A DNA stretch of 28,251 nt from Gemmatimonadota bacterium (GTDB lineage Bacteria > Latescibacterota > UBA2968 > UBA8231): positions 1 through 28,251 of the forward strand of contig JAYOYH010000017.1 of assembly GCA_038153405.1 (NCBI GenBank), given 5' to 3'. Positions 1 through 25,646 of the stretch are shown piece after piece. The translations under genes were made by a program, and so were the position numbers. The first letter of the stretch is position 1, and each line of letters begins with the position of its first letter. Under the pieces are notes generated by a model. The model was not told the origin of the DNA, made no database searches, and saw only the letters and a program-made list of their open reading frames with translations.

Positions 1-2826
1 ATCACCGACGATCAGGGTCGCTACTTTATTCTTAACGTGCCCCCGGGCGCGTATGCAGTAGAGGCTAGCTACGTCGGTTATCAGGCGCTGCGCAAAACCG
101 ATATCGCGGTGCGGCTCGACCTGACGACGACGGTGGATTTCAGCCTCGCCACCGAAGCGGTGCAGACGGAGGCTATGGTCATCACGGCGGAAGCGCCGAT
201 GGTTGAGCGCTCGCTGACCACCAGTCGCGCATCGATCGGCCTGTCCGAGATCAACAATACGATGCCGGTGGCTGATCTGCAGGATCTCATCAACACCACG
301 CCGAGCGTCTTTCGCGGCTATATTCGCGGGGGTCGCAAGGCCGAAGCCAAGGTCTTAGTCGACGGGGTCGACGTCTCCGATACCTACTTTCGCGCGGGTG
401 AAGGAGGCAACACATACAATCCGTACACGGACGTCAACCGCACCTCAGACGGTGAGTTTACGGCCGTGGGCATCAATGCCAGCAACGTGCAGGCGCTCGA
501 TATCGTGGCCGGCACGTTCAACGCCGAGTACGATGCGGCCAGCGCCGGCGTTATCAACGTCGTCACGCGCGAAGGGGGCGATGAGTTAGAGGGGCGCCTC
601 TTTATCCGCAGCGGTCTTGGTGGGTATAAAAATGCGGGCCCGGATGTGTATGAGGGACGCGTCAATCCAAAGCCTGCCGATGATGGCAGCGTCGACAAGA
701 CGACGTACTACGATCTGTACGAGCAGGCCCGAGACCAGCTGTTGGCCTCGGAAGACGCCGCAGACGTGGCGAAGGCCCAGCAGTACTACACCTTCAGACC
801 GGGCGACGTTACCTACGGCAGCAATCCGACGAGCGAAGTGGAGCTTTCGTTGGGTGGTAAGCTACCTGCCATTGGCACCAACTTCTATCTGACTACGCGC
901 TACCTCAACGACGAAGGCCTGTTGCCCAACACGCTCAATCGCTCGATGCGCCATTCGCTCAAGCTGACGCACAAGGCGGGCGATAACCTCAAGCTGACCG
1001 GCAACGTTATGATCGACGACGGCGGCGAATTGGGTGGCTGGGTAAACCGCAACTTCAGCGGTAAGTATGCCTACTATCCGGAAGGCGCGCTAGGTAATAA
1101 GAAGCTGGGTACTATGATGTATGTGGGCGCCAACTACTCGTTTTCGCCCAACACGTTTTTGGATGTCAAAGTGTCCAACGTAACGCGTTCGAGCACGTTT
1201 GGTTATTCCGATGACGATGGAGACGGCATCGTTGAAGAAGGTGAAGACGGCGATTTCATATTCATCGACAGCGCGGAAGAATCCGTAAAGTATCTCGGCG
1301 TTGACGGAAGTGGTGCCGATGCAGACGGCAACTTCACCTACTTCACCACCAACCCGGGTAACTCGAGAAACTTTGACCTGCCGTTTGGTTCCAATCAGTA
1401 CCGCCTAGGTCAGCCGGGTTTCTTTTACGAGGAACTCAATCGCGACGTGCTGCAGTTTAAAGCAGACCTTACGCATCAGATTAACTTTCATCACCAGTTA
1501 AAAGCGGGTATGCTGGTGCGCAAGCACTCCGTGTCGCAGCTCATGCAGCGCACCCAGGTCACGGTCGGCTACAGCAACCTGCCTTTCGAAGTGGGTGAGT
1601 ACGAGCGCAGTCCTTCTGAGATGGCCGTGTACGTGCAGGACAAGATCGAGTACGAAGGCATCATCATTAACGCGGGCGTGCGCCTCGACGGACTCAACGT
1701 CGATGCAGAGCAGATCGCCGATTTCTTCCGTCCGTCCGAAGAGGCCGAGTACACCTACGGAAATGGACAGACGCAGATCTATCGCCGACCGATTCGCGAA
1801 GGCGCAGTCGACACCAAGTGGTTTCTGCAGCCTCGCCTGGGCATTTCGCATCCGATCAGCGACAATGCGGCCATGCACTACTCGTGGGGCAAGTTTTACT
1901 CGCCGCCGTCCTTCTCTAAGCTGTATGACGATTACGCCAGCTTCGCCAACCCGTCCTATCCTGCCATCTACGACGTAGAGGCGGATCCGACGACGTCGAC
2001 GGCCTACGAGATGGGCATTCAGTACAGCTTTCATCCAGAGTACCTGGCGGACATTACGGCGTATTACCGGGACATCGAAAACTATGGCGATATTGGCTTT
2101 GCCATCAGTCCGGCCGATGCGGGCTTTGCTAACTACAGCTTCCGCACCTCGGGTGGGTATGCCGATAGCCGCGGTATAGAGCTGGGCATCGAGCGTCGTT
2201 CGAATAGCCGTATCAACGGCCGTTTCAACTACGCCTACAGCTATATCAAGGCCTCGCGTAGTGGCAATAACTCGACGCCGTTCCCCAATAAGTCTTCGTT
2301 TTCGCACGCCAGTGAGACGGATGTAGATGCATTGACCACGGCGCTTGAGAACAAAGAGTCGTTTAACACCTACGAAGCCAATGTGAACGGGGGTGGTAAT
2401 CCGCTGGTATCGGGTTATGACCGCGCCCATCGCATCGGTTTGACCTTGCTGGCTACGCTGCCTGCCGAAGTCGAACTGGCACTCATCACGACCGCCGAAA
2501 GTGGTTTCAACTTCAACATTACGGCGACCACCGAGGATCCGCGTGCCAGAGAGACCGATCGCGCACCGTGGAACATGCGCATGGACATGCGTCTCAACCG
2601 CGGTTTCCAGCTAGGCGGCTATGAATTAGGTGCGTTTTTTGAGGTGAGGAACCTGATGAACCGCGAGAACATTCTGACCTATGATAATCGCAACGTGCCG
2701 AGCGTCACCAAGTGGGAAGAAGATGGAGATCCGACCGGAGACCTCAATCGCGCCTTCACCGCCCAGAGCCAGGCCATTTATGACATTCCGCGAATGGCTA
2801 ACATCGGCATAACAGTGGATTTCTAA
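1..2826 (+). CDS. TonB-dependent outer-membrane receptor with N-terminal carboxypeptidase-regulatory-like domain (5'-truncated by window edge)
   Basis: Frame is open from base 1 (ITDDQGRYFILNVPPGAYAVEASYVGY, typical CarboxypepD_reg-like extension), so GTG at 37 is internal. Plug motifs IRGGR...VLVDGVDV and GTFNAEYDAASAGVINVVTREG; barrel strands (QPRLGISHP, AYEMGIQY, DITAYYRDI); ends in C-terminal Phe (IGITVDF). Confidence 0.93.
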   Translation: MTDDQGRYFILNVPPGAYAVEASYVGYQALRKTDIAVRLDLTTTVDFSLATEAVQTEAMVITAEAPMVERSLTTSRASIGLSEINNTMPVADLQDLINTTPSVFRGYIRGGRKAEAKVLVDGVDVSDTYFRAGEGGNTYNPYTDVNRTSDGEFTAVGINASNVQALDIVAGTFNAEYDAASAGVINVVTREGGDELEGRLFIRSGLGGYKNAGPDVYEGRVNPKPADDGSVDKTTYYDLYEQARDQLLASEDAADVAKAQQYYTFRPGDVTYGSNPTSEVELSLGGKLPAIGTNFYLTTRYLNDEGLLPNTLNRSMRHSLKLTHKAGDNLKLTGNVMIDDGGELGGWVNRNFSGKYAYYPEGALGNKKLGTMMYVGANYSFSPNTFLDVKVSNVTRSSTFGYSDDDGDGIVEEGEDGDFIFIDSAEESVKYLGVDGSGADADGNFTYFTTNPGNSRNFDLPFGSNQYRLGQPGFFYEELNRDVLQFKADLTHQINFHHQLKAGMLVRKHSVSQLMQRTQVTVGYSNLPFEVGEYERSPSEMAVYVQDKIEYEGIIINAGVRLDGLNVDAEQIADFFRPSEEAEYTYGNGQTQIYRRPIREGAVDTKWFLQPRLGISHPISDNAAMHYSWGKFYSPPSFSKLYDDYASFANPSYPAIYDVEADPTTSTAYEMGIQYSFHPEYLADITAYYRDIENYGDIGFAISPADAGFANYSFRTSGGYADSRGIELGIERRSNSRINGRFNYAYSYIKASRSGNNSTPFPNKSSFSHASETDVDALTTALENKESFNTYEANVNGGGNPLVSGYDRAHRIGLTLLATLPAEVELALITTAESGFNFNITATTEDPRARETDRAPWNMRMDMRLNRGFQLGGYELGAFFEVRNLMNRENILTYDNRNVPSVTKWEEDGDPTGDLNRAFTAQSQAIYDIPRMANIGITVDF

Positions 2827-2839
2827 TAGGAGCTATATC

Positions 2840-5362
2840 ATGCATATGCGAGTAAAAAAGACGTCGCTGTGGGCGGTGGCTCTGCTCTTCGGTATCGTCG
2901 GTAGCGCCTTTGCTCAGAAGGCGGGAGGCGTTTTCACCGCGGGCGATATCTGGGAGTCTTTCCTCCCGAGTAATGCGGGCCGCTTTTACGGAGAAGTCGC
3001 CGACGACCCGCAAAAGAGCTATGACCTGTTCCGAGTCGGTAACTGGGATCGCCAGTGGACGACTCCGACGCAGACCTATCCCGGCGGTGAGAATATCCAC
3101 TTGCCCTGGGGCCAAGAAATACAGATGTCGATGTACAGCTCGAGTGAGATTAACAACTTCACCGATTCGAATGCGCCCAGTGCCAGAAACTATCTGCTCG
3201 GTTTCTACACGAGTAATTTAGCGGGTGCGGGTGATTCCAATCGCGACTACACCAGCGATGGGGGTAGCTACTGGGCTGACAGCGACCGCAACGAGATGCA
3301 CTATACGGGCGGTATGCCAACCAACTTGGGCGTTGATGTGAAATGGCGCATGCGTCAGTATGCAGCCAACCACGCCAACCTGAACGACTTCATCCTCATC
3401 GAGTTGGAATTGACCAATACCGGCGTGCTCGATGCCGACGGCGACGGCGTGCCGGAAAAGACCGACAACCGCGTCGAGGCGCTCACGCTGCACATGCAGA
3501 ACGAGCCGATCAACTCGATGACGAACAGCAACAACGGTCGTCGCGGGGCCAGCGGTTGGTTTACCGGCCCGACATCGGGATACGATGCAACGCCGGACGG
3601 TAGCGGCGCAGCGTGGGACGTGCCGGTCGTGTTTACCGGTCCTGCGCCTAGCTCGCTGACCGAGCCGCATCCGGTCTTTGGTGGCAGCAGCGGCTGGTCC
3701 GCCGATGGCAAACGCTTGCTGGGTAGCACCATGCGCAGCCGCGGTCATTACTACGACATCTACAACGGTATGCAGTGGATCGCTGCTAAACAGGGTGGCA
3801 TGCCGGCCATTGGTAGCAGTGCTAACCAGGACGACAAGCGCACGATCTACGATAGCCATCCCGTCGGAGAGGGCGCCCAGCGCGGCTGGTTTACCTCTGT
3901 GCTGAAAGACGACGGTGGTCGTTCCGATGCGCGCGCATCGCATATCTATGCTATGAGCACGTTTTTCAACGGGCAGTCGATTGGTAGCCGCGTATGGGAT
4001 AAGGGTGCTTCGATCCAGAGCGCGAGTGCCCTAGTGCCCGATCCCAACTGGTTTGATCCAGACCATCCCGATATCGTGCCGGGCGATCCGCTGTCGTTTG
4101 TAAACGCAGTGCGTCCCGAGGGCGAGCGCGGTCAGCCGTTGGGCGATATGAAGTACAACAACAAGTTTGTGCAAAACTGGGAAGTCGATCCGAGCCAGAG
4201 TCTCGATAACCAGCCCGACTGGGCCTGGACAAAAGGCTACACGATCGATCACGGTTTTGACGGAAACATTCTCGTGGGTATTGGTCCGTTCGACCTGGAA
4301 GTAGGCGAAACGATAAACCTAGTGCTCGTAGAGTACGCTGGTTTTCGTCTCCAAGGCGCGCGCGCTGCCCGTCAGACGGCGCAGTGGGTGTATGAAAACG
4401 ACTTCCAAGTCCCGTCGCCGCCGCCGACGCCGAATATGGTGGTTGCACCCAATACAAACGTCAAGATTGATATCAAGTGGGACAATCGGGCCGAGTCGGA
4501 TCCGGACTTTGCCGGCTATAAAGTCTATCGTTCGGCGCTCTTTCCTCGCGTAGACTCACAGCAGGTGGGTATCCGCGTGGTAGATCGCTATCACGAGCAG
4601 ACAAAGGAAAATCCGACCGACGCTGAGCTGGCTGCATTGGGTAAGGCGAACAATCCCAATATCAGCTCTGCGGCCTACAAGCCACAGGAACCTGCGGCGT
4701 GGGGTCCCTATCGTCTAATCAAGCATGTTCCCGCTAGCGAGTTGGGGAACTATCTGAACGATGGTGCTGATAGCGGCACGTACAAGTACAAGTTTGAAGA
4801 CGAGAGCGACTTAGTGACGTTCGGTTTCACCTACTACTACTACGTGGCGGCATATAACAGCGATTCGGGCTCGATCAATGGCCAGGCATTTAACGGTCTT
4901 GAGACGCATCGTCACAACTTTAACGGACGCGACGGTTTGTGGAAGGGCACGTATCACTATGCGACGGCGTCGTCTTTCTTTCCCGCAGATCTGCAGGCCC
5001 AGAAAGACATTGGGGCCGCGTTTATTCTCAAGTCGCCCCTCGTCGATTCGGCGGAATTGGCCAACGGAAACCTCTCCGTGCGCGTAGTCCCCAACCCTTA
5101 TAAGAAAGGGGCTCTGCACGACACGGGTACCGAGCACAAGATGCTCTTTATCAACCTGCCCACCGGCACAAAGGTCACCATCTTTGACGTGTCGGGTCAG
5201 GTTATTGACGTCTTGCGCTTTAATGGCACCAATGCCTACGACGGTACGCTATTCTGGGATATGTTTTCCAAGGATGGTATCGAGGTTGCAAGTGGTCTAT
5301 ACATCTACGTGGCCGAGTACCCCGGTGGTTCACAGACCGGGCACTTCGCCATTCTGCGCTGA
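2840..5362 (+). CDS. Secreted 840-aa protein with FN3-like domain and T9SS-type/FlgD-Ig-like C-terminal sorting domain
   Basis: AGGAG SD upstream; Sec signal (MRVKKTSLWAVALLFGIVGSAFA|Q). Pro linker then FN3-like segment (IDIKWD...FAGYKVYRS...TYYYYVAAYN). C-terminus VRVVPNPY...KVTIFDVSGQVI...FWD...VASGLYIY...GHFAILR matches the CTD pattern. N-terminal ~520 aa not recognised. Confidence 0.8.
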   Translation: MHMRVKKTSLWAVALLFGIVGSAFAQKAGGVFTAGDIWESFLPSNAGRFYGEVADDPQKSYDLFRVGNWDRQWTTPTQTYPGGENIHLPWGQEIQMSMYSSSEINNFTDSNAPSARNYLLGFYTSNLAGAGDSNRDYTSDGGSYWADSDRNEMHYTGGMPTNLGVDVKWRMRQYAANHANLNDFILIELELTNTGVLDADGDGVPEKTDNRVEALTLHMQNEPINSMTNSNNGRRGASGWFTGPTSGYDATPDGSGAAWDVPVVFTGPAPSSLTEPHPVFGGSSGWSADGKRLLGSTMRSRGHYYDIYNGMQWIAAKQGGMPAIGSSANQDDKRTIYDSHPVGEGAQRGWFTSVLKDDGGRSDARASHIYAMSTFFNGQSIGSRVWDKGASIQSASALVPDPNWFDPDHPDIVPGDPLSFVNAVRPEGERGQPLGDMKYNNKFVQNWEVDPSQSLDNQPDWAWTKGYTIDHGFDGNILVGIGPFDLEVGETINLVLVEYAGFRLQGARAARQTAQWVYENDFQVPSPPPTPNMVVAPNTNVKIDIKWDNRAESDPDFAGYKVYRSALFPRVDSQQVGIRVVDRYHEQTKENPTDAELAALGKANNPNISSAAYKPQEPAAWGPYRLIKHVPASELGNYLNDGADSGTYKYKFEDESDLVTFGFTYYYYVAAYNSDSGSINGQAFNGLETHRHNFNGRDGLWKGTYHYATASSFFPADLQAQKDIGAAFILKSPLVDSAELANGNLSVRVVPNPYKKGALHDTGTEHKMLFINLPTGTKVTIFDVSGQVIDVLRFNGTNAYDGTLFWDMFSKDGIEVASGLYIYVAEYPGGSQTGHFAILR

Positions 5363-5390
5363 ATCGATCTAGGAAATGGAGGCTTAACAC

Positions 5391-6431
5391 ATGAAAGCTT
5401 TAAAGATCATAACAGTGCTGGGAATGGCCGTGCTCGTGGCGGCCGTCCAGCCTGCAGAGGCCGGCGTAGGAAAGTCCGGTCTCACCGGTGCCGCCTTTCT
5501 CAAGGTCGGCGTGGGCGCTCGTGCCGTGGCTTTGGGCTCGGCCTACACTACCGTTACGGGCGATGTGAACCAGATGTTTTGGAACCCCGCCGGCACGGCG
5601 ATGAGCGACGGCAAGGCGCAGGTCTTGCTCTCGCACAACTCGTGGATTGCCGACTTGTCGCACGATGCGGTGGGCTATGCGCGCGATATGGGCGATATGG
5701 GCACGCTGGGTATCGGCGTGGTCACGCTTGGTTTGAGCGATATCTCCGCCGACCGCGACGCCGTGCCGCAGTTTGTGCTCGATGCCGGCACCTTCGACCC
5801 CAACGATACCGCGACGTCGGGTAGCTATTCGTATCGCGACTTGGCCATCGGCGTCACCTGGAGTCGCCACATCACGGACCGCCTCGACATGGGTTTGACG
5901 GGCAAGATTGTCCGCCAGGCCATTGACGGTGTTAGCGCTACGGCCTATGCCGCAGATTTTGGCGCGATTTATCGCGTCGGCAACGGCATGCGCCTTGGTG
6001 CGCGCATCAACAACCTAGGCAGCGACCTGACGTTTTACGACATCGGCGCGCCGCTGCCGCTGATTTTCAGCATCGGTGCCGCCGCCGATCTGCTGCACAA
6101 TCGCGACGATGGCATGCAGGTTACGCTGCTGGCCGATGCGACCAAGCCGCAGGACGGCGAGCAGCTGCTCTACACGGCCGTCGAGGTGCAGTTGTTCGAT
6201 ATGCTGCAGTTGCGCTCGGGCTATAAGTTCAACTACCAGAGCTCGGAAGACGAAAAGGTGGACGAGGTCGATGGAACGGCATTTGATGCCCCGCGCACCG
6301 AAGAAGGCCTAACCGCTGGTATGGGTCTCGACGTGGGCATGGGGGGCTACGATGCCACCCTCGACTACGCCTTCACTTCGTTCGGCATCCTCGACAGCGT
6401 GCATCAGTTCTCGCTCAAGTTTCAATTCTGA
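5391..6431 (+). CDS. PorV/PorQ-family (FadL-like, UPF0164) outer-membrane beta-barrel
   Basis: GGAGG SD; signal peptide; family motif AAFLKVGVGARAVALGSAY...MFWNPAG; amphipathic strands; ends LDYAF...HQFSLKFQF with terminal Phe. Confidence 0.85.
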   Translation: MKALKIITVLGMAVLVAAVQPAEAGVGKSGLTGAAFLKVGVGARAVALGSAYTTVTGDVNQMFWNPAGTAMSDGKAQVLLSHNSWIADLSHDAVGYARDMGDMGTLGIGVVTLGLSDISADRDAVPQFVLDAGTFDPNDTATSGSYSYRDLAIGVTWSRHITDRLDMGLTGKIVRQAIDGVSATAYAADFGAIYRVGNGMRLGARINNLGSDLTFYDIGAPLPLIFSIGAAADLLHNRDDGMQVTLLADATKPQDGEQLLYTAVEVQLFDMLQLRSGYKFNYQSSEDEKVDEVDGTAFDAPRTEEGLTAGMGLDVGMGGYDATLDYAFTSFGILDSVHQFSLKFQF

Positions 6432-6454
6432 TAGCGAGCGGTTGATGTCGATCT

Positions 6455-6498
6455 AACAGGGAGGCCCCCGGGATGTGCTTTCGGGGGCCTCTTTTGTT
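6455..6498 (+). terminator. Intrinsic terminator after the TBDR-CTD-PorV unit
   Basis: 10-bp perfect stem GAGGCCCCCG (6461-6470)/CGGGGGCCTC (6482-6491) followed by TTTTGTT. Confidence 0.85.
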
Positions 6499-6643
6499 GC
6501 AGTGAGTTGTCTCTGCATCGCGCCGAGTTGTCGTCGGCGGGGCTGGTGCGGGATCCCGAGCCTATATTTCTACTAATCATCCTCTAGGCCGCTGCTGGGC
6601 GGATTGCCCGTCGCGGTCGCCATAGATCCAAATTCTATTTAAC

Positions 6644-9600
6644 GTGAGAATCGGGTTATACATAGTCCTGCTAGGCGCTGCCTGCAGTGTTGTTCGAGCC
6701 GATGCGGGCCTCGAAGACCGGCTGCGCCACTCCGTCCACGAGCTCTCAGGCCATGCCTCGCGCATGACAGGCTATGCGGGCGCCGACGCGGCGGCCCATT
6801 GGATTGAGCGCGCGCTGGGCGAAATGGCCGTCAAAGAGATTCACCGCCATGCGTTCCCGCTGCTGGTGCCGATGGACGAGGGATTTTCGCTGGAGATCGA
6901 AGGGCAATCTCTGCCGATCTATGGCGTTTGGCCCAATCTAATTCGCACATCCACTCTGCCCGACGGGGGGATTGAGGGTCAACTGCTCTACGGCGGCGAC
7001 GGCAGTCTCTTAGAGGGCAGGCCGGTAGCCGATCGCATCGTGCTGCTCGAATTCAACGCGCAAGACGTCTGGGTAGAGGCTTTTCAGCTGGGCGCGCAGG
7101 CGGTGATTTTTCTGCCAGCAAAAGGCGCACATCGCGCGGAAGCCGGACAAAAATTTCTCGATGTTCCCGCTGATTTGCCGCGTTTTTTTGCGCCGCAGTT
7201 GACGGCCGATGTGCTGCGCGCGGCGGCCGAGCGCGGGCCGCGGGTGCGCCTGAGCGGGCGCATGCCCATGCGCGAAGTGACGGCGCACAACATCGTGGCC
7301 ATCGTCGAAGGCAGCGACCCGCAGCTGCGCGGTGAAGCGGTGTATGTGACGGCGTATTACGACGCCATGTCGCCGGTGCCCGCACTGGCTCCGGGCGCAG
7401 AGCAGGCCAGCAGCGCGGCGGCCCTGCTCGAATTGGCGCGCGGCTGGACCGAGCGGCGTCCGCGCCGCACCGTCGTGCTCGTGTGGACGGCGGGTCATTT
7501 CCAACACCTCGCCGGCATGCGCTATTTGACGCCGGTGGTGATGGCCGCAGCTGGGCGTCGTCCGCCCGATGGGCTAAGCGAGCGGGAGCGGGCGCTGGCT
7601 GAGCGGTTAGGTGCGTTTAGGCTGCGCTTTGCCGCTGGTCTGGATCTGTCTTCCGGCAGCCCTATGATGGGCGCCTTTCGCCCGAATGCTCCGTATCGAA
7701 CTTCGCTGCTAGCACCGCCCCTTACCGTGCGCTTAATGGACCGCGTAGCGGCGTATGAAGATTCACTAGCAGCAGGTCGGCGCATATTTGCCAACGGCCT
7801 CAGGCAGGACTTTACGCGCCAGAGCCTCGGTTCTATGGCAGAGGTCGTGCCGATGGACGCCGCAGTGCTGGCGCTGGCCGGCTGTCCGACGATCGCTTTT
7901 GCGACGATCAACGACAGCCGCGCCCGCTTTGACGTCGTCGACGACGTTGCCGAGCGCGTGCGTTTTGCGTGGCTGGGCGAGCAGGTCGCGCTCCTCAAAT
8001 TTGTGTTATCGGAGCTGGTCGACGACGGCCAATTGGCTCCCTGGGAATGGGGCAATGACGCCTTTGGAACCATTCGCGGGCAAGTGGTTCACTACGGTCC
8101 GCGCAGCTATTTGCCCGACGAGCCCACCGGTCATGCATTGGTGCGCGTGCGCCTACGCCATCCGACGCTGTCCGGCGTGCGCCCCGATTTGTGGGCGGCG
8201 GCGGACGATTCGGGTTATTACCGCATACCCGGCGTAGAGACGCGCATTATCTATACGCAGCCGGTGCGCTTGGAGGCCTACGCGCTGGACGAGCGCGGTG
8301 CCGTTGTCGCAGCGCCGGATTGGGGCATAAACGGCGAGCGCAAGCTGCCCGGCCGCGCCCTCAAGGTGCTGATGGACGATCACGAGGAAGAGGTGCAGAT
8401 CGTTACGGCGAATCTGCGCGGCACGGCGCTCTTTGGCCTGTTTGACCCGCGCAACTTGCTGATGCCGGAGAATCTTGGCGCGATCGACGCGAGCCTCGAA
8501 GCGGAGCCCATGTCGTACGGGGCGTGCCTGCCGCTGACGGCACCGGAGATGGATCTATTTGGCTATAGAAACTACGTCGGTTCGCTAACGGAATCGGTTG
8601 CGGTGCTCTTTACCCGCCCCGGCACGCGCTTTAAGGTGGCCATGTCTACCGGGCGCTACGGACTGGGCCGCCGCCTACTGCTGCTCAATAGCAGCGACGA
8701 AAATCCGCTGGGTGCGGGCTTTGCCGTGCAGGACGAAGGTCGGCTGCCCAACACCGTTTACCAGGCGGCGCGCGATATGTTCTTGCTCAACGGTGCGCGC
8801 ATCGACAACCTGCAGCGACACGGCGTGCGCAACGGACGGCTGGCCGAGTTTCACGCGCGCGCGAAGGCCTACCTAGAGCAGGCCGATGCGGCGCGCGCGC
8901 GCTGGGCCCATCGCCTTTCGATCGATGCGGCGCGGCGCGCATGGGCCTATTCGGCCGCCGCCTATCGCGACGTTGAGAGCACGCAGGCCGGCGTGGTCCA
9001 AGGGGCGCTGTTTTTGTTGGCCGTCCTGCTGCCTTTTGCCCATTTTGCCGAGCGCCTGGTATTTGGCTTTCCCGACGTGCGCCGTCAGGTGCTGGGCTAC
9101 TTCGGGCTCTTCTTTGTCGGCTTTCTCGTCTTGAGTCAGCTGCACCCCGCCTTTGAACTGTCGATTTCTCCCTTTGTGATCTTGCTCGGCTTTGTCATCC
9201 TATCGCTGGGGCTGCTGGTAACCGGCATTGGCATTTCCCGCCTCAACCGCGAGCTGCAGGAACTAGCGCGCGGCCGGCGTGGCCACGCCTCCATGCAGCG
9301 CGGTGGAGCGGTTATGGCATCCATATCCGTGGGGTTAGCCCATATGCGGCGGCGGCCGCTGCGCACGGGAATGACCTGTGCAACGCTGGTCTTACTGACG
9401 TTTTCCGTGCTGTCTTTCACGTCCATTCGTTCGGCTCTGCGCACCAACTGGATCGACGTGGGGAGCGGGGCGCACTACGACGGCGCGCTGCTGCGCACGC
9501 TCGGTTGGAAGGCGATGGAAATGGAGGCCTACCGCATGCTGGTCGACTGGTTTGGCGTCGACAATGTCGCGCCGCGCGCCTGGAAGTCGGTTTCCTCAGC

Positions 9601-11035
9601 GGCGGCGACTTTTCGCGTCGAACGCGCCGATATCTCGGGGCGCGCGACTGGGGTTATGGGTTTTGCCGGTTTGAGCGCAGTCGAAGCGCACCTCGTGCGT
9701 CCGCAGGAAGGACTTGTCGCCGGGCGCTGGCTGCGCGCAGAGGAGGACGATGTATGCCTGCTGCCGCTGGGCGTCGCCGATTCGCTGGGCATTGGCCCAG
9801 CCGATGTGGGCCGCGCTCGGGTGCGCCTGTTTGGCGAAGAGTTTCGCGTGGTTGGGATTTTGGAGCACGCGGCGCTGGAACGGGTCGATCTCAACGGCGA
9901 GGGGCTGACGCCGCTCGATCCGGAAGCGCAGCAGCCCACCGAGGCTGCCTCGACGCAGCAGGGGGGCATGCCGCAGCACTACGCCCATATGCCGGGCGCG
10001 TCGACGCTCGTGCTGCCTTTTTCTTCGCTGATGCGCTGGCAGGGTGCGCACCTCGTATCGCTGGGCGTGCGGATGCCGCCAGCGCGCGCGCGCGCGGAGC
10101 TGGAGATGCTCTCCGAAGGCGTCGATTTAAACCTGTTTGCCGGTCTTGGGGGACGCCGCTATTTGATCAATACGGTGGGAGTAGCCTCCGTTTCGGGACT
10201 GGGACAGCTGGCCGTTCCACTGGGCATTGCCGCGCTGATTGTGCTCAATACGATGCTCGGCGCCGTCTACGAGCGCACGCGCGAAATAGGCACGCTCAAC
10301 GCCATCGGCTTGGCGCCGGTGCACGTGAGCGGACTCTTTATTGCCGAGGCGGTGGCGCTGGCCGTGATTGGAGCGGTTATGGGCTACCTGCTGGGGCAGA
10401 CGGCGGCGCAGCTGATGGGCAGCTTGGGCTGGTTGCAGGGGTTGGAACTGAATTACTCCTCGCTGTCGGCGGTGGTTACTGTGGGATTGGTCATCGCGCT
10501 GGTCGTCGCGTCGGCGCTCTATCCGGCGCATATGGCCGGCAAGATTTGCACGCCGGGTATCGAGCGGCGCTGGAAGCCGCCGGTGCCCGATGGCCACGAC
10601 CTGCGCATGCGTCTGCCCTTTACGCTGGCGCGCGTAGAGGCCGATGGCATGGCCGCTTTTCAAACCGAGTTTTGGGCGGCCCATCGCGAGCAATCGATTG
10701 GCGCAGGGTTTTACGTCGAAGCCCTGCGCGTCGGTCGCCAAGAGAGCGGTCTGCGCCTCGATGCGCGCGTTTGGCTTGCGCCATTTGACCAAGGCGTTGT
10801 GCAGGATACGGCGCTGTTTATCCGCCCTGGTGAGAACCCGCTTTACTGCGATATCGACGTGCACTTGCACTTGGTCTCAGGCGATTGGGATACTTGGCAG
10901 CGCGTGGCGCGCACCTTTCTCGACGATCTACGCAAGCAGTTTCTCGTATGGCGCACGTTAGCGGATGCCGATCGCCGCGCCTATGCCAGCGCGCTTGCGC
11001 GCTGGGAGCATGTGGGCGACGAGGTGCAGGTATGA
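6644..11035 (+). CDS. Large membrane fusion protein: degenerate M28-peptidase/PA ectodomain + beta-sandwich + extra TM bundle + MacB/FtsX-like ABC permease + C-terminal soluble domain
   Basis: Signal-like N-terminus. PA insert (GQLLYGGDG...DRIVLLEF...LGAQAVIF). M28 fold (NIVAIVEGSDPQLRGEAVYVTAYYD...PGAEQASSAAALLELAR). MacB TM1 (RRRPLRTGMTCATLVLLTFSVLSFTS), periplasmic core (GLVAGRWL...CLLP...ADSLGI...FRVVGIL) and FtsX motif (NTMLGAVYERTREIGTLNAIGL...LFIAEA). GTG start lacks a clear SD. Confidence 0.85.
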   Translation: MRIGLYIVLLGAACSVVRADAGLEDRLRHSVHELSGHASRMTGYAGADAAAHWIERALGEMAVKEIHRHAFPLLVPMDEGFSLEIEGQSLPIYGVWPNLIRTSTLPDGGIEGQLLYGGDGSLLEGRPVADRIVLLEFNAQDVWVEAFQLGAQAVIFLPAKGAHRAEAGQKFLDVPADLPRFFAPQLTADVLRAAAERGPRVRLSGRMPMREVTAHNIVAIVEGSDPQLRGEAVYVTAYYDAMSPVPALAPGAEQASSAAALLELARGWTERRPRRTVVLVWTAGHFQHLAGMRYLTPVVMAAAGRRPPDGLSERERALAERLGAFRLRFAAGLDLSSGSPMMGAFRPNAPYRTSLLAPPLTVRLMDRVAAYEDSLAAGRRIFANGLRQDFTRQSLGSMAEVVPMDAAVLALAGCPTIAFATINDSRARFDVVDDVAERVRFAWLGEQVALLKFVLSELVDDGQLAPWEWGNDAFGTIRGQVVHYGPRSYLPDEPTGHALVRVRLRHPTLSGVRPDLWAAADDSGYYRIPGVETRIIYTQPVRLEAYALDERGAVVAAPDWGINGERKLPGRALKVLMDDHEEEVQIVTANLRGTALFGLFDPRNLLMPENLGAIDASLEAEPMSYGACLPLTAPEMDLFGYRNYVGSLTESVAVLFTRPGTRFKVAMSTGRYGLGRRLLLLNSSDENPLGAGFAVQDEGRLPNTVYQAARDMFLLNGARIDNLQRHGVRNGRLAEFHARAKAYLEQADAARARWAHRLSIDAARRAWAYSAAAYRDVESTQAGVVQGALFLLAVLLPFAHFAERLVFGFPDVRRQVLGYFGLFFVGFLVLSQLHPAFELSISPFVILLGFVILSLGLLVTGIGISRLNRELQELARGRRGHASMQRGGAVMASISVGLAHMRRRPLRTGMTCATLVLLTFSVLSFTSIRSALRTNWIDVGSGAHYDGALLRTLGWKAMEMEAYRMLVDWFGVDNVAPRAWKSVSSAAATFRVERADISGRATGVMGFAGLSAVEAHLVRPQEGLVAGRWLRAEEDDVCLLPLGVADSLGIGPADVGRARVRLFGEEFRVVGILEHAALERVDLNGEGLTPLDPEAQQPTEAASTQQGGMPQHYAHMPGASTLVLPFSSLMRWQGAHLVSLGVRMPPARARAELEMLSEGVDLNLFAGLGGRRYLINTVGVASVSGLGQLAVPLGIAALIVLNTMLGAVYERTREIGTLNAIGLAPVHVSGLFIAEAVALAVIGAVMGYLLGQTAAQLMGSLGWLQGLELNYSSLSAVVTVGLVIALVVASALYPAHMAGKICTPGIERRWKPPVPDGHDLRMRLPFTLARVEADGMAAFQTEFWAAHREQSIGAGFYVEALRVGRQESGLRLDARVWLAPFDQGVVQDTALFIRPGENPLYCDIDVHLHLVSGDWDTWQRVARTFLDDLRKQFLVWRTLADADRRAYASALARWEHVGDEVQV

Positions 11036-12939
11036 TAGCGACGGTGAGAGCGCTATTGCTCATCGCCGGCATCACGGCGCTGAGCGGCTGGTTGGCTCAG
11101 CGCATCGAGCTCGTCTATAGCGGACCGCATATCGCCGGTGCGGGCAGTTCGCCGGGTGAGCAGGTCTTTCTCGCCGTGCCGCTGGGGGCGCTGGCGGCGC
11201 TGGCCCTGCTGCGGCGCTGGCTGAGCGAGGGCGAGCGCGCGGTGATCTACGCCGGGCTTGCCGTGGGCGTGTCGGCTACCGCTTCGGGTCTTATGCACCG
11301 CTTTTTGCCGGGGTTGGTGACGGGCTTTTACGGCGGCTTTGCCAGCCCGACGGGGCCCTACTTTAAGTTTTTGCAGGTTGTGCCCGAATGGGCCGTGCCC
11401 GGTGGCCCCAACGCGCCGGCGGCCATCGGCGCCTTTGAAGGCGGCGCTTCGGTGCCATGGGCGGCGTGGGCCGTGCCGCTGGCGGCGTGGTCGCTGTTTT
11501 TTGCCGCGCTATTTCTCACCTCATTTTGCCTAGTCGCCATTTTCCGCGAGCGCTGGATGGAGACCGAGCGATTGGGATTTCCGCTGCTGGAAATGCCGCT
11601 GGCCCTGCTGCGCGAGGGCCTGTTTACCAATCGCCTGTTTTACTGGGGATTGCTCGTTTCCGTTCTCTTGCTCGGCACCAATGGACTTAACCACTACGTT
11701 CCGGCCGTGCCGCAGATCACCCTCGGCCTCAACTTTGCCGATTTCCTCCTAGACGATCCCTGGAAGGCGATGGCGCCCTTTGAGACGCCGTTCCGCTTTC
11801 AGTTTTCCCCACTGCTCGTGGGCGTCGCCTTTTTGGCGCCGGTCGAGGTGTCGTTTAGCACGTGGTTTTTCTTCTTGGTCTCGCGCCTCCAACTGCTGGT
11901 AACGGGGCTTATTGGCCGTCTGGAGTATCGCGGCGAGTTCATACCGGGACACGGGTCGCCCTGGCTCGATTGGCCGTCGCACTTTCCGTTCTTTATGCCG
12001 CAGGCGCGCGGTGGGCTGCTTTTTTTAGTGCTCTTTGGCTTGTGGACGGCGCGGCGCTCGCTGGCGGCTATGTTGGCCCCGGGTCGCTGGCAGGTGTGGG
12101 GGTTTGCCGCTGGTTTTGCCCTGCTATGGGCGTGGATTGCCCTGCTGGGCGTGCCCGTTGCCATGGCCGGTCTGACGTTGGTTCTGTTTTTTTTGCTGGC
12201 GCTGGGCTTTGCGCGTCTGCGCGTCGACGGCGGCCTGCCCGTAAACGGCGTGCCGCAGATTATGGGCTATATGTTTTTTGTGGCGTTGGGCACGGGGCCG
12301 GGGGTCTTTCCCGATCAGACCTATGTGGCCTTCGCGCTCTTGGCCGTATTGGGCTTTACCTGCGTGGGTATCTGGCCGGCCCTGCAGTTTGAAGGGCTCA
12401 AGCTGGCCGAGGCGACAAGCGTTGCGCCGAGCCGCATGGTCTTAGGCATGTGCGTGGGCCTGGCCGTCGGCCTGGCCGCTGGCTATGTCTTCTCGTTGGA
12501 GGCGATCTACCAGCACGGCCTCTTTGCCTTGCAGGAGCAGGGCGGCGCGCGCTCGGAAGCGCGCATTGGGCGCTATTACAACTATCTGTTCAAAGACGCC
12601 GGTGCCACGGTGGGACCGACCGACTGGATTCGCCTGGCTTTCCACGGCGTGGGGGCGGCAGTGACGGCTTTCCTGGCGGTGATGCGCCAGCATTTTCTGC
12701 GCTGGCCCTTTCATCCGATGGGCTATGTCTTTGGCACGGGCTTTGGCTGGCTGGTGTGGGGGCCGGCGCTGGTGGGCTGGTTGTGCAAGTGGCTATCGGT
12801 GCGCTACGGTGGCGCGCAAACCTATCGCCGCCTGCTGCCCTTTTTTCTGGGGCTGATCTTTGGCGAGGTGCTAATGCGCCTCGTGTGGGCCGCTGTCGCG
12901 CTGTGGCAGGGGCAGATGGGGGCGGGATTCCGCTTTTAA
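11032..12939 (+). CDS. Polytopic membrane protein, DUF6785/DUF6784-like (distant OPT-superfamily relative)
   Basis: Start re-assigned to ATG 11032, which overlaps the upstream stop (ATGA), giving 635 aa. Highly hydrophobic. Motifs RERWMETERLGFPL and RWPFHPMGY...GWLCKWLSVRYGG...YRRLLPFFLGLIFGE recalled as typical of DUF6785/DUF6784 proteins. Confidence 0.75.
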   Translation: MIATVRALLLIAGITALSGWLAQRIELVYSGPHIAGAGSSPGEQVFLAVPLGALAALALLRRWLSEGERAVIYAGLAVGVSATASGLMHRFLPGLVTGFYGGFASPTGPYFKFLQVVPEWAVPGGPNAPAAIGAFEGGASVPWAAWAVPLAAWSLFFAALFLTSFCLVAIFRERWMETERLGFPLLEMPLALLREGLFTNRLFYWGLLVSVLLLGTNGLNHYVPAVPQITLGLNFADFLLDDPWKAMAPFETPFRFQFSPLLVGVAFLAPVEVSFSTWFFFLVSRLQLLVTGLIGRLEYRGEFIPGHGSPWLDWPSHFPFFMPQARGGLLFLVLFGLWTARRSLAAMLAPGRWQVWGFAAGFALLWAWIALLGVPVAMAGLTLVLFFLLALGFARLRVDGGLPVNGVPQIMGYMFFVALGTGPGVFPDQTYVAFALLAVLGFTCVGIWPALQFEGLKLAEATSVAPSRMVLGMCVGLAVGLAAGYVFSLEAIYQHGLFALQEQGGARSEARIGRYYNYLFKDAGATVGPTDWIRLAFHGVGAAVTAFLAVMRQHFLRWPFHPMGYVFGTGFGWLVWGPALVGWLCKWLSVRYGGAQTYRRLLPFFLGLIFGEVLMRLVWAAVALWQGQMGAGFRF

Positions 12940-12963
12940 TCGCGCGTTTTTGCAGGAGGAGCA

Positions 12964-14946
12964 GTGGCACAACACGATCCAAACGCCGACCTGGAGGCCT
13001 ATCGCAGCCTGATGGAGCGGCCCGAGCACTTTGCGGAGGGATTTACCTACCGCACGGTGATTGGCGCGTTCTTTGTCGGCTTTATCATGATGCCGGGCGC
13101 CATCTACATGGGATTGATCGCCGGCGTATCGCTGGGTTCGGCGGCCGAGTGGGTGACGATCATCCTCTTTTCCGAACTGGCGCGGCGCTCGTTCTCTTCG
13201 CTGACGCGCCAGGAGATCTATCTCATATACTATATTGCCGGTGGCCTAGCCGGCGTCATTGGCGGCACCATGCTGGCTGGTGGGCCCTTTGGCCAGCTGA
13301 TGTGGAACCAGTATTTGGTGCAGTCGCAGGCGGCCGAAGGCTTTGGTATCGCCGACAAGATACCGGACTGGGTTTCGCCGATGGCCGGGTCGGAGGCCAT
13401 CCTCTCTCGCTCTTTTCTGCACCGGGCGTGGATTCCACCGATCGCCGTGCTGGTCGCCGCGCAGGTGCTGTCGCGCGTGGAATGGTTTACGCTCGGCTAC
13501 ATTCTCTTTCGCGCGACCTCCGACGTCGAGCGCCTGCCCTTTCCGCTGGCCCCCGTCGCCGCGCAGGGGGCGATGGCGTTGGCCGAGAACGACGACGAGC
13601 GCGAAGGGTGGCGCTGGCGCGTCTTTTCGGTGGGATTGGGCATCGGATTGCTCTTTGGAGCGGTCTATATCGGGCTACCGGCGCTAACGGGTTTGATTGC
13701 CAGCGATCCCATTGCGCTACTGCCGATTCCGTGGATCGACCTGACGCGCACGACCGAATCCTTTCTGCCGGCCGCACCGCTGGGGATAGGCACCGACCTC
13801 GGTCTGGTGCTGCTGGGCACGGTGCTGCCCTTCTGGGTGGTCGTCGGGTCGTTTACCGCGGCCATGGTGCATGCGCTGGGCAGCCCGCTGCTCTACCACG
13901 CCGGATTTCTAACGCACTGGCGTCCGGGCATGGATACGATTATGACCAACTTTGCCAACGATGTCGACGTGTGGATGAGCGTCTATATCGGGGCCGGATT
14001 TGCCGTTGGCATCATTGGCGTTATCCACGCTGTGCGCTCGTTTCGCACTGCCCATCGCGAAAAGAAAATGAGCAGCTTTAGCATCGTGCCCAAAGGGCGC
14101 GGTGATTTTCCACTGTGGTTGGCCTTTGTCGGTTACGGGCTGTCGACGCTGGCCATGGTTGCGCTGTGCACGCTGCTGCTGAGAGACGACGAATTTCCGC
14201 TGGCCTTCCTGCTCATCTTTGGTTTTGTCGTCACGCCCGCTCTGTCCTATGTCAATGCGCGCATGTCGGGGCTAACGGGCCAGACGGTATCGTTTCCAAT
14301 GATTCGCGAGGGGGCTTTCATACTGAGCGGGTACAACGGAGTCGATATTTGGTTTGCGCCGATACCCTACGCCGATCACGGTCGTCGCGCACAGCTCTTT
14401 CGCGAGGTCGAGCTGACGGGCACGCGCTTTACGTCGATTCTCAAGGCGGAATTGCTCATCCTGCCGCTGAGCCTGATCTGCGGCTTTGTGTTTTGGCAGC
14501 TGATCTGGAGCATGGGACCGATTCCCTCGCCGGCCTTCCAATATGCACAGACCTACTGGCATTTGATTGCGCTGCGGCAGTGCTTGTGGTATTCGGCGAC
14601 GCTGGGCGGAGAAACGCTCTTTGATACGGCGATCAAGGGATGGTGGATTGCCGGCGGCTTTGCCTTTGCCGGCGGGGCGTTCGGCGTGCTGTCGCTGCTG
14701 CGCCTGCCGGTATCGCTGATCTACGGTTTTGTGCGCGGCCTGTCGGGACTGCCGCACCTGCTGATCCCAGAGATGATCGGCGCCCTGCTGGCGCGCTACT
14801 CGTTAGAAAAGCGCTTTGGCGCCGAGCGCTGGCGCCAGTACGCTCCCGTATTGTTGGCCGGCTACGCCTGTGGGATGGGATTAATCGGCATGTCTGCCGT
14901 GGCCATTGCGCTCATATCAAAATCCGTCACCCAAATGCAGTACTGA
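12964..14946 (+). CDS. OPT/YSL-superfamily (oligopeptide/metal-chelate) transporter-like protein
   Basis: AGGAGG SD before GTG. N-terminal EGFTYRTVIGAFFVGFIMMPGAIYMGLIAG followed by LTRQEI; ERLPFPLAPVAAQG matches the OPT LxFP motif; many TM segments over 660 aa. Confidence 0.8.
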   Translation: MAQHDPNADLEAYRSLMERPEHFAEGFTYRTVIGAFFVGFIMMPGAIYMGLIAGVSLGSAAEWVTIILFSELARRSFSSLTRQEIYLIYYIAGGLAGVIGGTMLAGGPFGQLMWNQYLVQSQAAEGFGIADKIPDWVSPMAGSEAILSRSFLHRAWIPPIAVLVAAQVLSRVEWFTLGYILFRATSDVERLPFPLAPVAAQGAMALAENDDEREGWRWRVFSVGLGIGLLFGAVYIGLPALTGLIASDPIALLPIPWIDLTRTTESFLPAAPLGIGTDLGLVLLGTVLPFWVVVGSFTAAMVHALGSPLLYHAGFLTHWRPGMDTIMTNFANDVDVWMSVYIGAGFAVGIIGVIHAVRSFRTAHREKKMSSFSIVPKGRGDFPLWLAFVGYGLSTLAMVALCTLLLRDDEFPLAFLLIFGFVVTPALSYVNARMSGLTGQTVSFPMIREGAFILSGYNGVDIWFAPIPYADHGRRAQLFREVELTGTRFTSILKAELLILPLSLICGFVFWQLIWSMGPIPSPAFQYAQTYWHLIALRQCLWYSATLGGETLFDTAIKGWWIAGGFAFAGGAFGVLSLLRLPVSLIYGFVRGLSGLPHLLIPEMIGALLARYSLEKRFGAERWRQYAPVLLAGYACGMGLIGMSAVAIALISKSVTQMQY

Positions 14947-17887: not shown

Positions 17888-18880
17888 ATGCAGATGTTCT
17901 ACGATAACGACGCCAACCTCGACCTGCTTTCGGACAAGACCGTAGCCGTGATTGGCTATGGCAGTCAGGGGCACGCCCATTCACTCAACCTCAAAGAGAG
18001 CGGCGTCAACGTCGTCGTGGGGCTGCGTGCGGGCAGCAGCAGCCGCGCCGCGGCCGAGAAAGAGGGGCTTAAGGTGCTCGATGTGGCCGAAGCGGCCAAG
18101 GCTGGCGATATCATCATGATTCTCATCAACGATGAAGTGCAGCGCGCCGTTTACGAGGCCGATATCAAGCCAAACCTGGAGGCGGGTAACGCACTGGCCT
18201 TCGCCCACGGCTTTAATATCCACTTTCAGCAGGTGGTGCCGCCGGCTGATGTCGATGTGTTCATGGTTGCCCCGAAGGGACCGGGCCATCTGGTTCGCCG
18301 CGTATACCAGCAGGGCGGCGGCGTGCCGGGCCTGTTGGCCGTTTACCAAGACGCAACGGGTCGCGCCCACGAGATCGGTCTGGCCTATGCCAAGGGCATT
18401 GGCTGCGGTCGCGCCGGCGTGATTGAAACGACGTTCCGAGAGGAAACGGAGACCGATCTCTTTGGTGAGCAGGTGGTGCTCTGCGGCGGTCTGACCGAGC
18501 TAATTCGCGCCGGGTTCGATACGCTGGTTGAGGCGGGGTATCAGCCCGAGGTGGCCTACTTTGAATGCCTGCATGAAGTGAAGCTCATCGTCGACCTGAT
18601 CTACGAGGGCGGCATCGCCAATATGCGCTCGTCGATCTCCGATACGGCCGAGTTTGGCGATCTGATGAGCGGTCGGCGCGTGATTACCGATGAGACGCGC
18701 ACCGAAATGAAGCGCATCCTCGCCGACATTCAGGAAGGGCGTTTCGCCAAGGAATGGCTGTCGGAAAACCAAGTGGGTCGACCGGTCTACAATGCGCGCA
18801 AGCGCCGCGACTCGGAGCATCTGATCGAGGATGTCGGCGCCAAACTGCGCGCGATGATGAGCTGGTTAGACAATAAGTAA
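17888..18880 (+). CDS. ilvC: Ketol-acid reductoisomerase (short form)
   Basis: [56 protein letters not shown]. Confidence 0.98.
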
Positions 18881-18892
18881 GTGGCGATGGGC

Positions 18893-18924
18893 GAGTGGAG
18901 GTGTCTCGTTGAGCACCTCCACTC
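18893..18924 (+). other. Strong intergenic hairpin 3' of ilvC (no U-tract)
   Basis: Perfect 11-bp inverted repeat GAGTGGAGGTG/CACCTCCACTC, extendable by CTC/GAG. Confidence 0.7.
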
Positions 18925-18963
18925 CGATGCTGCTCGTGCGGAAAAGCGGAAAGGAGGAAGCAG

Positions 18964-19095
18964 ATGGAGTCTCGACTTAGTGGCCTGCAAGACTGCGGCA
19001 AACCCCGACTTAGACGGGTAGGCGGTTTCGCACGGGCCGGATGGGACCGCCTGCCATGCTCTTTTCAATCCGGTAGAAGCGAGAAAAATGCATGA
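18964..19095 (+). CDS. Putative 43-aa upstream ORF translationally coupled to leuA
   Basis: AAGGAGG SD (18951-18957), 6 nt before ATG. MESRLSGLQDCGKPRLRRVGGFARAGWDRLPCSFQSGRSEKNA*; its TGA overlaps the leuA ATG (ATGA). Confidence 0.5.
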   Translation: MESRLSGLQDCGKPRLRRVGGFARAGWDRLPCSFQSGRSEKNA

Positions 19096-20630: not shown

Positions 20631-20705
20631 CCGCCGGAGTGTTGGCGTTGATACTGTTTTAATGAATGCGGCCGCCCGTGCGCGGTCGATTGGGAAAGGT
20701 AGACA

Positions 20706-22109: not shown

Positions 22110-22118
22110 GGGGGCAAT

Positions 22119-22718
22119 ATGGAAAACTCGAGTGTGAGAAAGCAAGTGCAGGGGAGCGGCGTGCCGGTGCGCGGCGCCGATATCGATACCGACCGCATTA
22201 TTCCCGCGCGCTATTTGCGCACCGTGACCTTCGAAAATTTGGGCGAACACGCCTTTGAGGACGACCGCGCCGGCGGCGGCCATCCGTTTGACGAGCCGAG
22301 CTATCAGGGTGCTGGCGTGCTGGTGGCCAACGCCAACTTCGGCTGCGGTTCGTCGCGAGAGCACGCGCCGCAGGCGCTGATGCGCTGGGGCATCAAGGCC
22401 TTTATCGCCGAGTCTTTCGCCGAGATTTTTTTCGGCAACTGCACGACGCTGGGCTTGCCCTGCGCGACGGCCACAGTGGCTGATGTGCAGGCGCTGCAGG
22501 CGGCGATAGAAGCCAATCCGCGTCAGGAAATCGTCGTCGACGTCGAGGCGCGGACCGTGCGCTTTGACGGCGGTGAGATCGCCGTTTCCATACCGAGCGG
22601 CGTCCGCGAGCAGCTAGTCAGCGGCAATTGGGACTCGCTGGGCCAGTTGCTCGACGCCGAAGAGGAAGTCAAGGCACTGGCGGCCAAGCTGCCCTACGCG
22701 AAGTCCTTCGTCGCCTAG
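22119..22718 (+). CDS. leuD: 3-isopropylmalate dehydratase small subunit
   Basis: DIDTDRIIPARYL, NFGCGSSREHAP, SFAEIFFGN. Confidence 0.98.
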   Translation: MENSSVRKQVQGSGVPVRGADIDTDRIIPARYLRTVTFENLGEHAFEDDRAGGGHPFDEPSYQGAGVLVANANFGCGSSREHAPQALMRWGIKAFIAESFAEIFFGNCTTLGLPCATATVADVQALQAAIEANPRQEIVVDVEARTVRFDGGEIAVSIPSGVREQLVSGNWDSLGQLLDAEEEVKALAAKLPYAKSFVA

Positions 22719-22720
22719 CG

Positions 22721-22771
22721 CCAGATAGAGTAGTGACGGTGGGGCGGAGCTTCACCCCATCGGCTATCTGG
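22721..22771 (+). other. Long intergenic hairpin between leuD and cimA (no U-tract)
   Basis: Outer stem CCAGATAG/CTATCTGG enclosing inner stem CGGTGGGG/CCCCATCG. Confidence 0.6.
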
Positions 22772-22802
22772 AACGCGTATCGCATTATCGAGGAGCCGCC
22801 GT

Positions 22803-24404: not shown

Positions 24405-24427
24405 ACGCTTTTGAAGGAGAGAGGGAC

Positions 24428-25636: not shown

Positions 25637-25646
25637 GGAGAGCCCT

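Follow-up and report, generated by a model that had tools for sequence, protein, structure and literature searches.

Polysaccharide utilisation loci (PULs) are routinely detected by means of the susC-susD gene pair, in which SusD is a TPR-like lipoprotein, and phyla without this pair therefore look poorly equipped. Here we examined a stretch of 28,251 nucleotides (contig JAYOYH010000017.1 of assembly GCA_038153405.1; hereafter the window) that begins with three genes, encoding a TonB-dependent transporter (TBDT), a secreted protein of 840 amino acids (aa) with a C-terminal domain (CTD) like those of type IX secretion system (T9SS) cargo, here called the partner, and a barrel protein of the PorV family. 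These genes form a conserved operon, and we consider it fairly probable that the partner, docked on this private barrel, captures a nutrient, likely a glycan, for the TBDT.

T9SS cargo of type A exits via SprA and is collected by PorV, all such cargo being said to use one common PorV (PMC12618676), while cargo of type B needs a cognate PorP/SprF barrel, which is encoded directly downstream and is thought to act as an anchor (PMC12618676, PMC9143113). Some T9SS proteins retain their tail (PMC11285876), and T9SS parts in other phyla of the Fibrobacterota-Chlorobiota-Bacteroidota (FCB) group are already in print (PMC11285876, PMC12611786). In their available portions, the papers on the Caldithrix and Latescibacteria genomes refer to TBDTs solely in connection with vitamins and iron, and our literature search found no description of a cassette of TBDT, CTD-bearing partner and PorV-like barrel.

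Conservation of the three-gene cassette

Relatives of the partner were found to be encoded at 151 loci (71 from metagenomes and 80 from genomes; some are redundant, and the best 80 per scan were taken). A TBDT gene was located directly upstream of the partner gene in 109 of the 110 loci with at least 500 nt of upstream sequence, and a PorV-like gene directly downstream in all 138 loci with enough flank. Both neighbours were in place at 99 of 99 testable loci, with partner identities down to about 35%, so that the conservation of the triplet, which the first-pass annotation of this DNA had set as a test beforehand, was borne out. The 99 intact triplets rule out a chance adjacency of the three genes. 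The sole miss (L140) is a fragment of the partner located where a contig ends, next to a retroelement-like open reading frame (ORF) in a record labelled Chlamydiaceae, and is probably a misassembly. The genes that flank the triplet vary freely. Trees of 82 complete, non-identical orthologous triplets agree with each other (distance correlations 0.92-0.98), with 2-3 conflicts among 33-50 strong splits; this agreement alone could reflect the species tree.

In the window, all three genes are encoded by the + strand. The TBDT gene (positions 1-2826) is represented by its 3' 941 codons and is open at its 5' end. It is followed after a 13-nt gap, which contains the Shine-Dalgarno sequence AGGAG (2828-2832), by the partner gene (2840-5362), and a 28-nt gap with the Shine-Dalgarno sequence GGAGG (5378-5382) separates the latter from the barrel gene (5391-6431; 346 aa). 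A hairpin with a U run that resembles an intrinsic terminator is located at 6452-6500 (+ strand; -30.5 kcal/mol, z -5.19), and none of 200 shuffled sequences folded as well; a scan for consensus terminators and promoters listed neither a promoter nor this hairpin. The ORFs, the two Shine-Dalgarno sequences and the hairpin fold thus confirm the tight three-gene spacing with a single terminator that had been described. The same is true for the lack of a SusD-like lipoprotein gene directly after the receptor, as the next gene has neither a SusD match nor a lipobox.

The window is the start of its contig (C17), and the operon start had been regarded as out of reach, so that upstream partners seemed possible. 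This view did not hold. The end of another contig of the same assembly (C19) is identical to the window start over 55 nt, and the first 30 nt of the window have no second occurrence in the assembly. The TBDT frame runs on into C19 up to an ATG that is located 59 codons upstream and preceded by GGAGG; the start is signal-peptide-like and the full TBDT measures about 1000 aa. Before this start lies an intergenic stretch of 196 nt with 31% GC, compared to 59% for the genome. Two relatives (L003 and L007) are colinear over the join, with a DNA identity of 76% over 2.95 kb. Since the start can be read on C19 and the relatives are colinear, the operon consists of three genes, and a SusD or other partner encoded upstream in it is ruled out. 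Near-identical contigs from the RNA libraries of three studies span all three genes, which attests to presence only, as strand, start, level and a single transcript are unreadable from them. Exact 55-nt overlaps at contig ends are common to 30 contig pairs of this assembly, and many of its contig breaks can therefore be bridged.

The partner protein and its tail

The partner starts with a putative signal peptide (2840-2914) that, as read by eye, looks typical of the Sec type, ends in A-F-A/Q and is devoid of a lipobox cysteine; it coincides with a helix at residues 2-23 of the model. An AlphaFold2 model of the partner (pLDDT confidence 91.5, pTM score 0.90) begins with a beta-supersandwich and a helix (residues 503-519), after which come an FN3-like domain and finally a tail made up of strands only, and all 840 residues are assigned in it to supersandwich, FN3 and CTD. 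For the supersandwich with its linker helix (aa 26-519; 2915-4396), the closest structures are the N-terminal non-catalytic domains of glycoside hydrolase (GH) family GH94, GH15, GH65 and GH116 enzymes (Z 13-16, identity 6-12%). The best of these matches has a Z of 16.2 with a root mean square deviation (rmsd) of 3.6 over 252 aligned residues, followed by Z values of 15.3, 15.0 and 15.0. The catalytic (alpha/alpha)6 barrel of these enzymes has no counterpart in the partner model, where only short scattered helices are seen. The FN3-like domain (aa 526-735; 4415-5044) contains insertions and resembles Dscam FNIII (Z 9.5, rmsd 3.0, 101 aligned). Foldseek alone gave weak matches to the model (best E 1e-4). 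At the sequence level, no Pfam family scored above its cut-off, the best match among solved structures (E 0.5) named no family, and an Atlas search with the whole partner led to clusters labelled hypothetical, in one of which 17% of the members carry Por_Secre_tail, and an Atlas search with the N-domain returned no named match. The partner family comprises 4712 representatives at E<=0.001 and 50% clustering, many of which were matched via the tail alone. An acidic DxDxDG loop is present in the partner at aa 198-203 (about 3431-3457), with D198 being invariant among 107 homologues, and another in the receptor (about 1210-1236); we take both loops to be calcium-binding.

The tail (aa 745-840; 5072-5359) was identified with TIGR04183, which scored 23.9 bits on the C-terminal 315 aa of the partner, against a cut-off of 23, as well as 23.4 bits in the genome scan and 20.3 bits on the whole 840-aa protein. 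Matches at E<=0.01 were obtained for 71 of 82 partner homologues, and a profile of the tail family matched the CTD region of PorU (E 0.012). Altogether, these results uphold the original description of the partner as a CTD-tailed secreted protein. When cassette tails were scored with a left-one-out profile, for which close kin were kept in the training set, 39 of 39 reached at least 75.9 bits (79.4 for the window tail), and 64 other CTD-like tails of the host genome scored 50.5 bits or less. Moreover, the tail is the best-conserved segment of the partner, with 60% identity compared to 35-38% for the other domains among the 43 most distant homologues, as would be expected for a lasting interface. 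Judging from these profiles, the tail is a type A-like CTD of a distinct, cassette-specific subtype. Neither a tail of the TIGR04131 type, as in type B cargo, nor a PorP/SprF-family barrel was listed at E<=0.1.

The transporter, the barrel and the host genome

The first gene encodes a carboxypeptidase-like N-terminal extension, a plug and a barrel with a terminal Phe. In Pfam, CarboxypepD_reg scored above its cut-off, Plug below it (E 0.003), and PF00593 gave no match to the gene as contained in the window. A phmmer search of solved structures with this receptor alone found nothing, and a family profile was required: the profile of 75 family members matched solved TBDTs across plug and barrel, with E values of 3e-20 for the SusC homologue 8aa4, 9e-20 for PhuR and 3e-19 for Cir. 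TIGR04056, the model for the SusC/RagA family, gave no match at E<=0.1. On sequence grounds, therefore, the first gene is classed as a TBDT outside the SusC/RagA family.

The barrel scored 172.5 bits with NF033709 (PorV/PorQ family; cut-off 90) and remained below the equivalog cut-offs for PorV (NF033710; 57.6 versus 250) and PorQ (87 versus 220). A profile of the barrel family matched the solved PorV 6h3i_F (E 1e-16). The housekeeping PorV is encoded by a separate gene on contig C91, directly downstream of a gene for a PorU-like C25 protein. A quick tree with SH-aLRT support, built from 74 PorV-family proteins, places all 40 cassette barrels inside one group of 44 members (SH-aLRT 91, not starred), and the PorU-adjacent PorVs lie apart in a group of five (SH-aLRT 100). 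The four other members of the large group comprise one barrel after a weak-tail partner, one after a 1065-aa ORF at the edge of a stretch, an additional barrel placed between two cassettes, and a barrel that directly follows a TBDT. The barrel can thus be distinguished from the PorU-adjacent PorV by score, position and tree, which rules it out as the housekeeping PorV and agrees with the earlier proposal of a dedicated PorV paralogue. A DUF560 barrel, as in Slam/type XI systems, and TbpB-like cargo had no Pfam match at the locus. As a separate arrangement outside TBDT cassettes, five genomes encode a conserved protein of 485-580 aa, the tail of which is in most cases weakly CTD-like, and its gene is followed by a tandem pair of PorV-family genes (C31 18131-21616 in the host assembly, G000, and loci L165, L171, L191 and L208).

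The host is no member of the Bacteroidota and is presumably a Latescibacterota-like bacterium of the FCB group; the closest named homologues belong to records labelled Latescibacterota or Gemmatimonadetes, with KSB1, Calditrichota and Ignavibacteria coming next. Its assembly is 93% complete and contains SprA, two PorU-like C25 proteins, one of which is encoded directly upstream of a PorV-family gene, 69 CTD matches at E<=0.01, and TonB (TonB_C above cut-off). The SusD models PF07980 and PF14322 had no match in it, with a positive Bacteroides control. The T9SS genes that were suggested as a check are thus partly accounted for, in that SprA and PorU were found. The window triplet is the only complete cassette in this genome. 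A second TBDT of cassette type is located at a contig end (C55 25618-28972), where the gene that follows, for a secreted protein, is cut off after its start. The orthologue of this TBDT in another genome (G004, L169) belongs to a full triplet.

Related cassettes in other genomes

Five genomes were used for comparison, from Calditrichota, Ignavibacterium album, a KSB1 species, Latescibacterota and an uncultured 'Bacteroidetes'. In this order, they contain 37, 19, 35, 13 and 32 PorV-family matches, 1, 1, 1, 0 and 0 SusD matches, and 1, 3, 2, 0 and 0 SusC/RagA genes above cut-off. SprA was found once in each, and hence in 6 of 6 genomes tested including the host. Cassettes were counted with window-family profiles in 60 stretches around the stronger PorV matches of four of these genomes (none from Calditrichota). 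Of the 66 PorV-family ORFs examined, 39 end a cassette (by genome 10/15, 14/20, 14/23 and 1/8), 36 in the order TBDT-CTD-PorV and 3 as TBDT-x-CTD-PorV. The count of paralogous cassettes had been proposed as a check; it stands at 39 cassettes, mostly paralogues, in four other genomes and one complete cassette in the host. Several cassettes adjoin sugar enzymes, symporters or regulators.

Apart from one fragment of 341 aa, the partners in these cassettes measure 589-1277 aa. What they mostly have in common is the last strand, the helix, the start of the FN3 domain and the tail. In a profile comparison with two paralogue groups, only positions 464-668 of the window partner could be aligned, and there is therefore no N-domain motif common across the family. 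No enzyme family in Pfam matched any of 38 paralogous partners (the orthologue L162 was left out). The model of a distant paralogue has the same supersandwich-FN3-CTD plan (pLDDT 87.8), with matches to a GH15 N-domain (Z 19.9) and, for its tail, to the PorZ CTD (Z 11.6, rmsd 2.4, 88 aligned). Co-phylogeny of the three genes, as anticipated and as seen for the orthologues, was also found for these mostly paralogous cassettes: in a distance test with 38 of them and the window cassette (n=39, the 341-aa fragment being dropped), receptor, partner, tail and barrel distances correlated with Spearman coefficients of 0.71-0.82, compared to a maximum of 0.29 in 999 permutations. Cassette pairs from the same genome are about as distant as pairs from different genomes. 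In one cassette subgroup (L203, L206 and L209 of genome G003), a lipoprotein-like gene of roughly 410 aa follows the barrel gene; L203 and L206 are tandem cassettes.

Proposed function and alternatives

The export route, the docking, the contact with the receptor, the non-catalytic role and the substrate class in the following scheme are ones that we infer. The partner would cross the inner membrane by Sec and leave through the SprA translocon, upon which the co-encoded PorV-family barrel would collect it, and the uncut tail would stay docked there. The FN3 domain would then act as a stalk, and the supersandwich would bind the substrate at the entrance to the TBDT; TonB would open this transporter for uptake of the captured substrate. 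The tail very probably binds the co-encoded barrel, and it is highly likely that the partner works with the co-encoded receptor. The partner is likely to be a binder rather than an enzyme. A glycan is fairly probable as the substrate class, because of the supersandwich fold and the scattered sugar-related neighbours. Beyond this locus, it is an evenly balanced question whether a second class of TonB importer with a lid, built independently, is in use among Ignavibacteria, KSB1, Calditrichota, Latescibacterota and FCB phyla related to them. In such an importer, a T9SS-exported supersandwich on a private PorV-like barrel would be the lid against the transporter. The system would be the main counterpart of SusCD in these phyla, would be present in at least 10-14 copies per genome, would mark PULs, and might be the more ancient purpose for which SprA, CTDs and PorV barrels were employed.

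Several observations weigh against this capture model. The orthologue is patchy in distribution, being present in 21 of 61 genomes of the class and in 11 of 33 good ones. A fixed glycosidase neighbour was not found across the orthologous loci and none flanks the window copy, for which reason no substrate is named; the glycan-related neighbours of the orthologues (rhamnosidase, GH38, heparinase-like, GH116-like, sugar oxidoreductases, symporters) are scattered rather than fixed. The TIGR04183 score of the tail is borderline. GldM and GldN were not found in the host, although no control genome passed either cut-off. The many conserved polar residues in the partner N-domain are as compatible with catalysis as they are with binding. 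Six homologues (P0050, P0077, P0131, P0133, P0135 and P0169) combine the same body with an ordinary type A CTD and further domains of the ASH, SBBP propeller, cohesin or dockerin kind, and the body may therefore act outside a cassette; a search of 168 genomes for the genomic context of P0050 returned only frames of cassette-type length. At one locus (L175), a paralogous barrel gene directly follows a TBDT gene, with no partner gene between. Lastly, the duplication of whole cassettes would yield the same agreement between trees, irrespective of binding.

The conserved residues of the N-domain (R65, R71, D147, R150, D183, E188, R235, D253, D306, K317, R348, K438 and E448) would also be compatible with a partner that is a surface enzyme of an unknown hydrolase, lyase or epimerase family, sits on the private barrel and supplies the receptor with its products. 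Supersandwich catalysts indeed exist, as illustrated by the resemblance of the partner to a GH174 fucanase (Z 10.1) and to mutarotase-like proteins (Z about 10), and the ordinary-CTD homologues with cohesin/dockerin, ASH or propeller domains would fit an enzyme as well. However, the best structural matches are to N-terminal domains, the model is devoid of the helical catalytic barrel of its structural neighbours, none of the 38 paralogues matches an enzyme family, and no N-domain motif is common to the family. We therefore consider a surface enzyme unlikely; the model and the paralogues make the enzyme the less likely branch of the earlier 'lid or enzyme' proposal.

A different fate of the partner, rather than a different activity, is at issue if the barrel is only a shuttle that carries it from SprA to PorU, where it would be cleaved and joined to a lipid, or if it is released as a soluble, hemophore-like scavenger that brings substrate back to the receptor. 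PorU-like C25 proteins are present in the host, type A cargo normally travels on a PorV that is recycled, to be anchored or released afterwards (PMC12618676), and the Xenorhabdus hrp locus combines a TBDT and a dedicated barrel with a released binder (PMC8406197). Yet a recycled shuttle is already available beside PorU, and each partner gene has a single barrel gene, which is co-transcribed with it and co-diverges from it in step, as suits a stoichiometric anchor. The presence of one barrel for each partner, the unusually conserved tail subtype and the co-divergence of all three genes speak for a lasting complex more than for a shuttle that is recycled, and this makes the shuttle or release reading quite doubtful. 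The cassette might also have no role in uptake at all, with the TBDT or the barrel exporting the partner (as for Oar/PopC or Slam), or with barrel and partner folding or stabilising the receptor (as for BamG/BamH). Protein export by a TBDT is on record (PMC6434023), and the BAM complex of Bacteroidota includes FadL-family barrels that keep surface proteins next to another barrel (PMC12578637). This reading appears very improbable in view of SprA in all six genomes tested, the T9SS-type signal in the tail, the proximity of several cassettes to sugar enzymes, symporters or regulators, and the 10-14 cassettes per genome with divergent partner bodies, which is the pattern of substrate-specific importers.

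If the capture model is correct, a three-gene marker would allow the mapping of substrate-specific loci in abundant, mostly uncultured aquatic and sediment phyla. Among cultured lineages, an Ignavibacterium album genome is the one for which cassettes are shown here. The cassette would also break the one-PorV rule for type A cargo and tie the T9SS translocon directly to TonB uptake, and a large unannotated partner family would be given a role. The window copy is one ordinary member of this family, and the interest rests on the system.

Genes in the vicinity of the cassette

Directly downstream of the cassette, the window (6644-14946) encodes a protein of 1463 aa that combines an M28-peptidase-like N-terminal part with a MacB/FtsX permease part. 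The same stretch also encodes a DUF6785/DUF6784 membrane protein and contains a 660-aa ORF without annotation. Among 86 complete loci, the gene for the 1463-aa protein is found near the cassette in 24 and the DUF6785 gene in 29, in close relatives only. These downstream genes are a candidate inner-membrane step for the same substrate. Upstream of the operon, contig C19 (79537-84033) contains a DUF6785-like gene and genes for a GFO/IDH/MocA-type oxidoreductase and a 480-aa membrane protein without a Pfam match, which we take from its appearance to be Nramp-like; homologues of the upstream genes flank the cassette on either side in 25 and 23 of the 86 loci. In the most distant group (L055, L070, L147, L149 and L152), a PF01717 gene (cobalamin-independent methionine synthase catalytic domain) lies 3' of the barrel gene in 5 of the 86 loci; in 6 of the 86, the cassette is followed by a gene for an unannotated protein that measures about 620-780 aa. 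Positions 17888-27880 of the window contain genes of ordinary biosynthesis (ilvC, two leuA-like genes, leuC, leuD, argJ, an aminotransferase gene and accA).

Comparison with known systems

Apparently, the cassette represents a widespread uptake architecture that has not been described, and its function is one that we infer. Like SusC/SusD (RagA/RagB), it combines a TBDT that carries a carboxypeptidase-like extension with one dedicated surface-partner gene that follows directly, and it occurs in many paralogous copies per genome that co-diverge. In contrast to SusC/SusD, the TBDT does not belong to TIGR04056, the partner is a predicted supersandwich/FN3/CTD protein with an apparent Sec signal instead of a TPR-like lipoprotein, and a third gene adds a putative barrel anchor. 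The order of a cargo gene and a gene for its own 14-stranded FadL-family barrel is shared with the type B pairs SprB-SprF and PG1035-PorP (PMC9143113, PMC12618676). Unlike in these pairs, the cassette tail is type A-like and the barrel is of the PorV/PorQ family, which runs counter to the one-PorV rule (PMC12618676), and the known type B cargo are adhesins without a linked TBDT.

The combination of an unremoved type A-like tail with a PorV-family barrel is known from PorZ-PorQ and PorU-PorV (PMC11285876), the cassette tail being presumably uncut as well. Indeed, cassette tails match those of PorZ and PorU. However, PorZ-PorQ and PorU-PorV are single-copy parts of the secretion system, whereas the cassettes are multi-copy and linked to a transporter. 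An importer, a binding protein and a dedicated outer-membrane barrel are likewise encoded together in tbpBA-slam and in the Xenorhabdus hrpABC locus (PMC8406197), but there is no homology to these Slam/type XI secretion system (T11SS) loci and no DUF560, and in those loci the barrel is the exporter and the substrates are metals or heme. Lastly, the partner shares its predicted supersandwich fold and the following linker helix with the N-domains of GH15, GH65, GH94 and GH116 enzymes, from which it differs in having FN3 and CTD domains in the place of the (alpha/alpha)6 barrel.

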